Source: a bacterium (GTDB taxonomy: Bacteria; Patescibacteriota; Minisyncoccia; UBA6257; GWB1-50-10). From it: DNA of 35,494 nt. The position numbers and the translations under genes are program-made. The stretch is from contig JAJZPU010000002.1 in NCBI GenBank assembly GCA_021811055.1, positions 1-35,494 on the forward strand, given 5' to 3'. Below, in pieces: positions 7,921-8,307 of the stretch; the first letter of the stretch is position 1; each line of letters begins with the position of its first letter. Under the pieces are notes generated by a model that searched no databases, had not been told where the DNA came from, and worked only from the letters and a program-made list of their open reading frames with translations.

Positions 7921-7993
7921 TGGACCGTGCGGGATTCGAACCCGCTGCCTTTTGCATGCCATGCAAACGCTCTACCAATTGAGCTAACGGCCC
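7921..7993 (-). tRNA. tRNA-Ala (anticodon GGC)
   Basis: 73 nt. Acceptor GGGCCGT/ACGGTCC with the G3:U70 alanine identity pair, anticodon stem TTTGC/GCAAA with loop ATGGCAT, T-arm GCGGG-TTCGAAT-CCCGC. Confidence 0.9.
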
Positions 7994-8307
7994 CCTACAC
8001 CAATTGAGATTAATCAAATAATAGCGTATATTCAAGTCTTTTCTTAAGTTGTGCCAGGGCTCTTGCGCGTAATTTCAAATTTTCTTCCCTCTTTTTTGCA
8101 TCTTTTTCAGAAAGATATGCTTCGTAGTACAAAAGCTTGAATGAGGCACGTGATTTTGTTGATTTAGAATTCCCGCGATTATGTTCTTCAAACCTTCTTT
8201 TCAGATCGTTTGTATATCCTATGTACAAATTATTGTCCTTTGAACTTTTTAAAATATAAACAAAGAACATAATCCAAAATCTCGATTGGTGTGGGGGCTA
8301 ACGGCCC
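7983..8307 (-). mobile_element. compact GIY-YIG cassette with terminal inverted repeats and 11-bp flanking direct repeats
   Basis: Direct repeat gctaacggccc at 7983-7993 (the first 11 nt of tRNA-Ala) and at 8297-8307. Inverted repeats ccccctacaccaattgag (7991-8008) and ctcgattggtgtggggg (8281-8297). The 303 bp between the direct repeats is almost entirely the GIY-YIG ORF. Confidence 0.55.
8010..8270 (-). CDS. GIY-YIG nuclease domain protein (small, UPF0213/YhbQ-like)
   Basis: 86 aa. FFVYILKS..NLYIGYTNDLKRRFEEHN carries the GIY-(10 aa)-YIG signature plus R..EH. AT-rich. Confidence 0.85.
   Translation of the reverse strand: MFFVYILKSSKDNNLYIGYTNDLKRRFEEHNRGNSKSTKSRASFKLLYYEAYLSEKDAKKREENLKLRARALAQLKKRLEYTLLFD

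Follow-up and report, generated by a model that had tools for sequence, protein, structure and literature searches.

The window, the 35,494-nt stretch of patescibacterial DNA analysed here (contig JAJZPU010000002.1), carries beside its tRNA-Ala gene a small cassette encoding a predicted GIY-YIG nuclease. This cassette, at positions 7992-8297, is probably one copy of a compact DNA transposable element of the insertion sequence (IS) kind, with the 86-aa GIY-YIG protein (UPF0213/Slx1) as the product of its sole gene. Its status as a mobile element bounded by terminal inverted repeats (TIRs) is close to shown. The GIY-YIG protein is the most likely candidate for the element's transposase-like enzyme, at a chance just short of even. 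The IS-like family to which the element belongs is apparently undescribed, and it would be categorically new if the nuclease were the transposase. An earlier note, made from the letters of the window alone, had proposed a transposon-like, undescribed mobile unit with a lone GIY-YIG gene. This proposal is borne out by inverted repeats on 53 of 79 other copies and by an empty site in a close relative.

The insertion at tRNA-Ala and its empty allele

On the minus strand, the locus reads tRNA-Val (8678-8603), an RNHCP-domain gene (8600-8298), an open reading frame (ORF) of 86 codons (8270-8010), tRNA-Ala(GGC) (7993-7920) and then a MazG-like gene. The features of the insertion and its immediate neighbours are:

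7992-8297, minus strand: whole element in its symmetrical reading, 306 bp, with two 10-nt terminal cores, 20-nt inverted repeats and one ORF
7994-8296: equivalent insert of 303 bp by empty-site comparison (by blastn between the window and L082, which has the empty allele)
7992-8011: tRNA-proximal terminal inverted repeat, CCCCTACACCAATTGAGATT on the plus strand
8278-8297: distal terminal inverted repeat, AATCTCGATTGGTGTGGGGG on the plus strand, 18/20 complementary to the proximal arm
7984-7991: target-site duplication, proximal copy, CTAACGGC on the plus and GCCGTTAG on the minus strand, equal to nucleotides 3-10 of the live tRNA-Ala
8298-8305: target-site duplication, distal copy, CTAACGGC on the plus strand; the 8-nt direct repeat adjoins both cores
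8010-8270, minus strand: ORF of the predicted GIY-YIG nuclease (UPF0213/Slx1-like), 86 aa, Pfam PF01541 with E 2.8e-17
7920-7993, minus strand: intact tRNA-Ala(GGC) (ARAGORN; Rfam 69.2 bits), its first two bases from the element end
8298-8600, minus strand: RNHCP-domain gene, ending ..MGR-stop inside the distal copy of the 11-nt repeat

The direct repeat GCTAACGGCCC has exactly two exact copies in the window, at 7983-7993 and 8297-8307, as had been noted before; none are expected (100 shuffles). The earlier note took all 11 nt as a duplication, which goes too far. If both 10-nt cores are complete, the true duplication is 8 bp and the three other matching bases are element ends. The 11-nt repeat is therefore explained by at most 8 bp of duplication and by element-end bases that replace G1-G2 of tRNA-Ala. 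On the minus strand, these two bases are 7992-7993, within the proximal repeat, whose inner end overlaps the stop codon of the ORF. On the distal side, 8298-8305 and 8306-8307 together form a dead 5' fragment of the original tRNA-Ala, which now holds the last codons and the stop of the RNHCP gene; the ..MGR-stop ending had been read correctly. Both neighbouring genes survive because the dead fragment keeps the RNHCP stop and the element end supplies G1-G2 of the tRNA.

The inverted repeats had been recognised as well, but with one indel; the arms (7992-8011 and 8278-8297) in fact pair ungapped over 20 nt, with 18 complementary positions. No further copy of the inverted repeat occurs in the window at up to three mismatches (0 expected by chance), and the GIY element is present only once. 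The cassette is AT-rich, as stated previously for its ORF, with a GC content of 0.34 versus 0.46 for the whole window.

Close relatives of the locus are represented by three short contigs (L001, L082 and L083; L numbers denote the contigs and loci compared), with about 88-94% identity over tRNA-Val and RNHCP. L001 and L083 have a filled site, with a cassette whose ends are identical to those in the window. L082 has an empty site: the cassette is absent, the 11 nt are present in one copy, and the tRNA-Val/RNHCP segment is joined straight to tRNA-Ala (..AAAAATGGGCCGTTAGCTCAATTGG..). At this junction (..TCAAAAATGGGCCGTTAGCTCAATTGGTAGAGCG..), the RNHCP stop TAG is formed by nucleotides 8-10 of tRNA-Ala. 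By blastn, positions 446-829 of L082 correspond to 8680-8297 of the window and positions 819-923 to 7993-7889; the 11 bases at 819-829 align to both copies of the repeat, and the window has 303 bp extra. The orthologous locus thus exists without the cassette, and the arrangement is polymorphic.

The simplest history appears to be an old insertion followed by a precise, seamless loss in the L082 lineage, a reading drawn from 384 aligned bases and one contig. It is favoured because the empty strain is nested among filled ones and because the cassette has diverged as much as its surroundings. Identity is 93.8% between L001 and L082, 91.9% between the window and L082, 90.9% between the window and L001, and 88-89% for L083; between the window and L001, the cassette diverges as its flanks do (91.2% versus 90.9% identity). 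In L082, at 816-829 (window 7983-7993 before the insertion), the RNHCP coding sequence overlaps tRNA-Ala by 10 nt on the same strand, which is unusual.

Terminal repeats, target sites and stable-RNA genes

Homologues of 84-86 aa number in the hundreds and come mostly from Patescibacteria (the candidate phyla radiation, CPR), with some in bins labelled Omnitrophota, Margulisiibacteriota, Elusimicrobia, Planctomycetes and others. From these, 80 genome loci were picked on protein similarity alone, and 79 ORFs had enough flank to be scored. With a score threshold of at least 11, inverted repeats bracket 53 of the 79 ORFs, a score reached by 1 of 395 controls that were shuffled and by 0 of 76 that were displaced. 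The arms, 18.5 nt long in the median, show 96.6% complementarity. They share a 10-nt outer core, CCCCCACACC...GGTGTGGGGG, which is conserved across phyla; a minority carries the variant GCCCCTCACC...GGTGAGGGGC. Towards the ORF, an arm often runs into the start or stop codon, and this inner stretch has its mirror copy at the opposite end. Across many phyla, the GIY ORF is found with these ends at 55-80% protein identity.

The closest relatives of the window protein (76-80% aa identity) have the same 20-nt ends and lie at the 3' end of tRNA-Trp and at the 5' ends of tRNA-Glu and tRNA-Leu. Altogether, these ends occur at five or more different RNA genes and at many sites of the form TNNA. This distribution also bears on the resemblance of the repeat to the tRNA D-arm that had been pointed out. 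The resemblance is real; an origin from the D-arm of this tRNA is rejected because the same repeat flanks relatives at other tRNAs and at non-tRNA sites. To judge from these comparisons, the likeness is a coincidence of a terminal sequence intrinsic to the whole family.

One clade of homologues (L039, L042, L062 and L065, with ORFs at 1501-1770 and the C-terminus ..SAGAKTALKRRLP..GHFV) has no terminal repeats. Its members may be immobilised or domesticated copies, or they may use different ends.

An exact-match look-up of the window's own 86-aa protein gave no contig. Viral contigs scanned with the 14-nt repeat core gave single matches only, at chance level and without convincing pairs, and tblastn against phage and plasmid collections returned only partial matches below 50% identity; neither a phage nor a plasmid origin is therefore indicated. 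Two IMG/VR contigs (L138 and L142) contain several GCCCCCACAC / GTGTGGGGGC motifs 0.1-3 kb apart, probably an unrelated repeat.

The sequences next to the repeats carry the mark of insertion. Among 61 distinct units, the four bases immediately outside both cores are repeated directly in 23 and in inverted orientation in one. At the two middle positions, direct matches make up 68 of 122 comparisons and inverted matches 20 of 122. The consensus of the duplication is TNNA: T occupies position 1 in 39 of the 52 left flanks and 43 of the 52 right ones, and A occupies position 4 in 43 and 42 of them, respectively. The sequence upstream of it is purine-rich. Exact 4-mers were seen 10 times, versus about 3 predicted by random pairing of flanks.

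Units without the ORF share these ends. The protein-selected loci also contain hairpin-only units of 28-38 nt and units of 60-140 nt with the same ends, most of them with perfect 4-nt duplications. A metagenome scan with the window-type 20-mer CCCCCACACCAATYGAGNTT returned 40 loci, among them 8 GIY-bearing units of 301-307 bp and about 24 units of 48-163 bp that resemble MITEs (miniature inverted-repeat transposable elements) and have identical 20-nt ends. The interiors of the MITE-like units are AT-rich, unrelated to the ORF, and fall into several subfamilies at different loci. Perfect 4-5-bp duplications flank about half of the distinct metagenome loci; those of MITE-like units include TTTA, TAAA, TCAA, TTGA, CAAA, TCCG, CGAG, CTTTG, TAGGG and TTGAC. 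No larger unit or transposase was found between such repeats in the 40 end-selected and roughly 90 protein-selected loci, a search that left whole genomes aside. The pattern is the usual one of an autonomous element with non-autonomous relatives, apart from the nature of its one protein. For annotation, the 10-nt core together with the TNNA duplication offers an easy signature of these elements and of their MITE-like copies.

At L064:240-290, two units lie head to tail, 4 nt apart (..GGTGTGGGGG-TCCA-CCCCCACACC..), and in L026, L050 and L061 remnants of older repeat arms lie upstream of a dead tRNA fragment. These cases suggest repeated insertion at the same spot.

That the unit targets tRNA genes had been proposed in the earlier note, which also suggested a search for duplicated tRNA fragments beside further copies. 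Copies next to tRNAs do have duplicated tRNA 5' fragments, and tRNA ends are indeed a frequent target, but the range is broader and includes transfer-messenger RNA (tmRNA), RNase P RNA and ordinary TNNA sites. About 18 of the 57 repeat-bearing elements in the protein-selected set touch a stable-RNA gene: 13 lie at tRNA ends, 2 at tmRNA 5' ends and 3 inside hairpins of RNase P RNA. In a genome of 1 Mb, such sites would account, roughly estimated, for about 0.1% of the sequence.

At tRNA 5' ends, the duplication proper consists of tRNA nucleotides 4-7 (CGTG, CGCG, CCTG, CCCG) or, in the GCCCCTCACC subfamily, of nucleotides 5-9 (CAGTA, CCGTA, CCTTA, GGTTA). The G-run at the end of the element (..GGG or ..GGGGC) supplies nucleotides 1-3 or 1-4 of the tRNA. 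The dead fragment upstream comprises the original first bases of the tRNA plus the duplication, and it is decaying in L050, L248, L251 and L254. The same logic of end replacement applies at tRNA 3' ends (tRNA-Trp in L084, tRNA-Phe in L076) and at tmRNA 5' ends (L052, L056). In each case the RNA gene stays whole because the terminal G- or C-run of the element replaces its own terminal bases.

RNase P RNA genes are rebuilt in a comparable manner. At L048:828-1334, such a gene has a MITE-like unit at each end, and their GGGG and CCCC ends form the P1 helix. At L010:1398-2050, L027:1409-2014 and L053:1350-1990, the gene contains a GIY-bearing unit, and two different hairpins serve as sites; the C-run and G-run of the element make a stem, and the genes are expanded to about 640 nt. 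The RNase P RNA copies would be tolerable only if the insert folds away as a hairpin.

Two other ideas about the tRNA sites were set aside. 'Variable duplications' of 7-19 nt at tRNAs might have spoken against transposition; each proves to be made up of a 4-5-bp duplication and the terminal bases that were replaced, with remnants of an earlier insertion in addition in L026, L050 and L061. The upstream tRNA fragment and the left repeat together resemble a small hairpin or a mimic of a tRNA 3' end (..CACCA), which arises automatically from the overlap of repeat and duplication and has no independent support.

In one population, some contigs carry a gene of the 23S_rRNA_IVP family (122 aa; L087:703-1071, L089:253-621) immediately upstream of the GIY element, where L084 and L085 have a different gene. 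The 23S_rRNA_IVP gene may be a second small cassette-like gene, polymorphic at the same tRNA-Trp locus.

At the RNA level, the ORF and the host RNA gene are co-oriented in all of about 22 independent cases, despite the symmetry of the 20-nt ends. The pattern points to reliance on transcription of the host gene, or to selection against antisense transcription. In the predicted minimum-energy fold of the window transcript, the repeats pair with each other (z -4.9). Such folding, the constant orientation, purifying selection on the ORF, and the conservation of the arrangement with unchanged ends in three relatives would all suit a non-mobile host gene of tRNA operons, whose repeats form a conserved processing or stabilising stem and whose polymorphism goes back to a one-off deletion between short repeats. 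This explanation is nevertheless the least probable of those considered, barely more than a formal alternative. It is opposed by the family-wide target duplications, by MITE-like copies at unrelated loci, by the same ends at five or more different RNA genes, and by a base composition of the cassette that is foreign to the window. Nor do the stem mismatches favour it: on the sense strand, they comprise 12 G.T, 13 C.A and 10 others, with no excess of G.U. An explanation of the repeats by RNA alone was dropped for this lack of bias. RNA pairing is a plausible reason why the elements are harmless, yet it does not alone explain the repeats.

The GIY-YIG protein as candidate mobility enzyme

By sequence and by model, the ORF product is placed in the GIY-YIG superfamily, on the UPF0213/Slx1 branch, and is a predicted nuclease. 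The match to PF01541 reaches 63.2 bits versus a cut-off of 22.6, which agrees with the first identification. A family profile matches UPF0213 BH0048 (E 2.4e-13), EF2693 and SLX1, with 1zg2 and 1ywl as profile hits in the PDB; the NCBIfam model of group I intron endonucleases gives a weak match (E 7e-6). Y5, Y16, G18, R26, H30 and E62 are invariant in 37 homologues. Y5, Y16, R26, H30 and E62 are taken here to be catalytic by analogy with I-TevI and UvrC. The AlphaFold2 model (predicted local distance difference test score, pLDDT, 93.5) has strands at 2-9, 15-20 and 44-52 and helices at 23-32 and 55-85, giving a beta-beta-alpha-beta-alpha fold. Foldseek retrieves 1zg2, Slx1 (root-mean-square deviation 2.2 Å over 71 columns), I-TevI and UvrC, with UPF0213 BH0048 and Slx1 nearest. 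The model amounts to a bare GIY-YIG core with a 31-residue C-terminal helix, and neither Pfam nor the model indicates a second Pfam domain or a separate DNA-binding domain in the 86-aa protein. The pN/pS ratio (nonsynonymous to synonymous polymorphism) between the window ORF and that of L001 is 0.13, which indicates purifying selection.

The GIY-YIG fold is the classic fold of homing endonucleases, and the earlier note had mentioned a homing-type unit. A free-standing homing endonuclease gene would be copied by break repair into an empty cognate site that its product has cut, and the inverted repeats would be the halves of a palindromic homing site. The weak intron-endonuclease match, the structural match to I-TevI, the clean presence/absence polymorphism and the existence of short solo palindromes of the two repeats would be in keeping with this. 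Homing is disfavoured, and indeed very improbable, because 4-5-bp duplications occur at many unrelated sites (different tRNAs, tmRNA, RNase P RNA and TNNA sites) and because ORF-less MITE-like derivatives exist. Elements and solo palindromes alike are flanked by direct repeats of this length, which homing does not make. In addition, the protein has no DNA-binding domain of the I-TevI or Seg kind, no intron model matches, and the filled state appears ancestral and the empty one derived.

If the unit is a transposable element, its enzyme is to be found either within it or elsewhere. The window element contains no recognised transposase (DDE, serine, tyrosine, HUH or Cas1), and its sole ORF is the GIY-YIG gene. 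The cassette may then be a passenger, a member of a family of MITEs or mobile insertion cassettes moved in trans by an unlinked conventional transposase, with the GIY-YIG protein as cargo that serves in repair, defence or addiction. Identical 20-nt ends that enclose very different non-coding interiors would fit a passenger, as would a protein made of a catalytic domain and a helix only, the homologue clade without repeats, and relatives such as UPF0213 BH0048 and EF2693, which are chromosomal proteins of an ordinary kind with no known function. We regard a passenger as unlikely, though as a serious alternative. Neither the repeat-selected nor the protein-selected loci contained the larger unit or transposase mentioned above, and the GIY ORF is the only coding cargo seen between these ends, with which it is associated across phyla. 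The duplications, variable at 4, 5 or 8 bp, are unlike those of a DDE enzyme. Moreover, the repeat variants (CCCCCACACC versus GCCCCTCACC) track the clades of the protein, which differ mainly in the C-terminal helix.

Were the GIY-YIG protein the mobility enzyme, the following course of events could be envisaged. The protein would recognise the terminal repeats, probably via its long C-terminal helix. Probably as a dimer, it would nick 4-5 nt apart (8 in the window) at each repeat boundary and at a purine-TNNA target. Excision would leave identical overhangs on the two donor flanks and permit seamless resealing, as in L082, and insertion would be completed by host ligase and polymerase. The ORF, with no promoter of its own, would be read from the transcript of the host RNA gene, and the paired repeats would fold the whole insert into one hairpin, harmless inside structured RNAs.

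In its full form, this proposal describes a new class of autonomous transposon of about 300 bp, the smallest known. A Slx1-like GIY-YIG transposase would act on the hairpin or cruciform of its own repeats, leave the joining to host enzymes, and mobilise MITE-like and hairpin-only derivatives. In CPR and other uncultivated bacteria, the class would be specialised to the ends of helices in genes for tRNA, tmRNA, RNase P RNA and probably rRNA, and would rebuild these helices with its G- and C-runs. We hold this wider proposal tentatively, as possible but with somewhat less than an even chance.

Several points weigh against it and against the element reading at large. The protein is a bare nuclease domain with no strand-transfer activity known to us, and we know of no GIY-YIG protein that is an established transposase; joining would fall to the host because a nuclease alone cannot join DNA. 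The length of the duplication is not fixed (4 and 5, and 8 in the window), which is unusual for a transposase, and in the window the sequence alone is compatible with any length between 4 and 11. One clade of homologues lacks terminal repeats, and the interiors of the MITE-like units, being unrelated to the ORF, leave room for an unlinked mobilising enzyme. The empty allele is known from a single assembled contig of 1.1 kb. The window has only one copy; in its lineage, the element looks old and vertically inherited, and its two C.A repeat mismatches are common to L001. Finally, the absence of a G.U bias among the repeat mismatches leaves the RNA-hairpin part of the model with contextual support only.

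Known systems and other repeats of the window

Among known systems, the element most resembles bacterial IS with their MITEs (class II TIR elements), such as the IS5/IS630 type and the Correia elements of Neisseria. The likeness comprises TIRs, short duplications of loose consensus (TNNA), one short ORF, abundant ORF-less derivatives with the same ends, strain-polymorphic sites and paired ends that can form a long hairpin in the transcript. In Correia elements, the TIR stems are substrates of RNase III. Unlike IS, the GIY element has no DDE, serine, tyrosine, HUH or Cas1 transposase, its duplications vary (4, 5, 8), and many copies sit in stable-RNA genes and rebuild them. No existing IS family is assigned because the defining transposase is absent. 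To our knowledge, the smallest autonomous IS measure about 600-700 bp, and the GIY element, at about 300 bp, is less than half as long.

With GIY-YIG homing endonucleases (I-TevI, T4 Seg), the element shares the catalytic fold, the character of a small selfish gene and an association with tRNA regions; SegB is located in the tRNA gene cluster of T4. It differs from them in its inverted repeats, duplications, many sites and ORF-less derivatives, and its protein lacks their DNA-binding domain. The closest relatives in sequence and fold are the UPF0213 proteins (YhbQ/BH0048/EF2693) and Slx1. Slx1 cuts branched or hairpin-like DNA, the kind of structure that the paired ends of the element could form; in contrast, it is a repair enzyme that acts together with Slx4, and its gene is not part of a mobile element. 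For UPF0213 proteins, the papers searched report no association with inverted repeats or a transposon, and in full text other than subscription-only articles, no inverted repeats, target duplications or tRNA targeting are described for small GIY-YIG genes.

The nearest published description is a 2024 survey of insertions in rRNA genes of CPR bacteria (PMC11270868). GIY-YIG proteins were found there in insertions unlike group I or group II introns, scattered over several sites; that study mentions neither inverted repeats and target duplications nor MITE-like copies, nor any sites at tRNA, tmRNA or RNase P. These rRNA insertions may belong to the same family as the window element.

Like rRNA intervening sequences, the elements insert in helices of stable RNAs and are tolerated as their ends pair, a situation met in the RNase P RNAs of L010, L027 and L053. 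The window copy differs in its position, as it occupies the 5' boundary of a tRNA and does not interrupt a helix. Integrative elements with tRNA genes as their targets also keep the tRNA functional via element-borne bases and leave a duplicated tRNA fragment as a mark of the far end. Those elements, however, use site-specific tyrosine integrases, enter the 3' half of the tRNA and are kilobases long, whereas the GIY element replaces only 2-4 terminal G or C bases by the run at its repeat end.

Whatever the enzyme, the family explains a class of hitherto puzzling insertions in stable-RNA genes of CPR bacteria, such as tRNA 5' fragments and oversized RNase P RNAs, and possibly also the non-intron GIY-YIG insertions reported in rRNA genes. 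It illustrates a simple trick that lets a mobile element enter essential RNA genes and leave them working. Should the GIY-YIG protein be the mobility enzyme, bacterial transposition gains a new catalytic class and autonomous transposons a new lower size limit. GIY-YIG proteins would then count among transposase-type enzymes, beyond homing, restriction and repair, and a function would be found for some members of UPF0213, a large family of unknown role.

A second kind of repeat in the window, the E elements, had been linked mechanistically to the GIY element in the earlier note. They are GC-rich, structured, about 115 nt long, and constitute a separate family at tRNA 3' ends:

386-503, 2215-2316, 3213-3328, 5641-5757, 7780-7895 and 10285-10400 of the window: six full copies
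518-574 of the window: partial copy
L067:1851-1966 and L083:1-57: other copies

Four copies closely follow the 3' ends of tRNA genes (Arg, Glu, Ser, Ala), and one comes after tRNA-Val in a Yanofskybacteria genome. Their ends resemble the tRNA T-arm (GGATTCGAAC...CGAATCC), and RNAalifold detects compensatory changes in 19 of 28 pairs. The proposed link is not upheld: among about 120 loci, L067 is the only one beyond the window lineage (L083) in which an E element and a GIY element occur together. Rfam has no family for the E elements or for the repeat stem of the GIY element.

Beside the missing cassette, L082 lacks a further 490 bp of the window (7399-7888, against L082:923-926). This segment comprises most of an E element, a 40-nt piece that repeats part of tRNA-Ala and the whole MazG-like gene (7428-7745). 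The 40-nt piece (7749-7788) matches 7898-7937 and duplicates the tRNA-Ala 3' end together with half of the terminator hairpin. On the 3' side of tRNA-Ala, L082 has a hairpin with a T-run and then the next gene (window 6769-7332). Short tandem runs of the heptamers GGAAATT/GAAAATT occur at 13562-13595, 14302-14350 and 30860-30908 of the window, one of them inverted.

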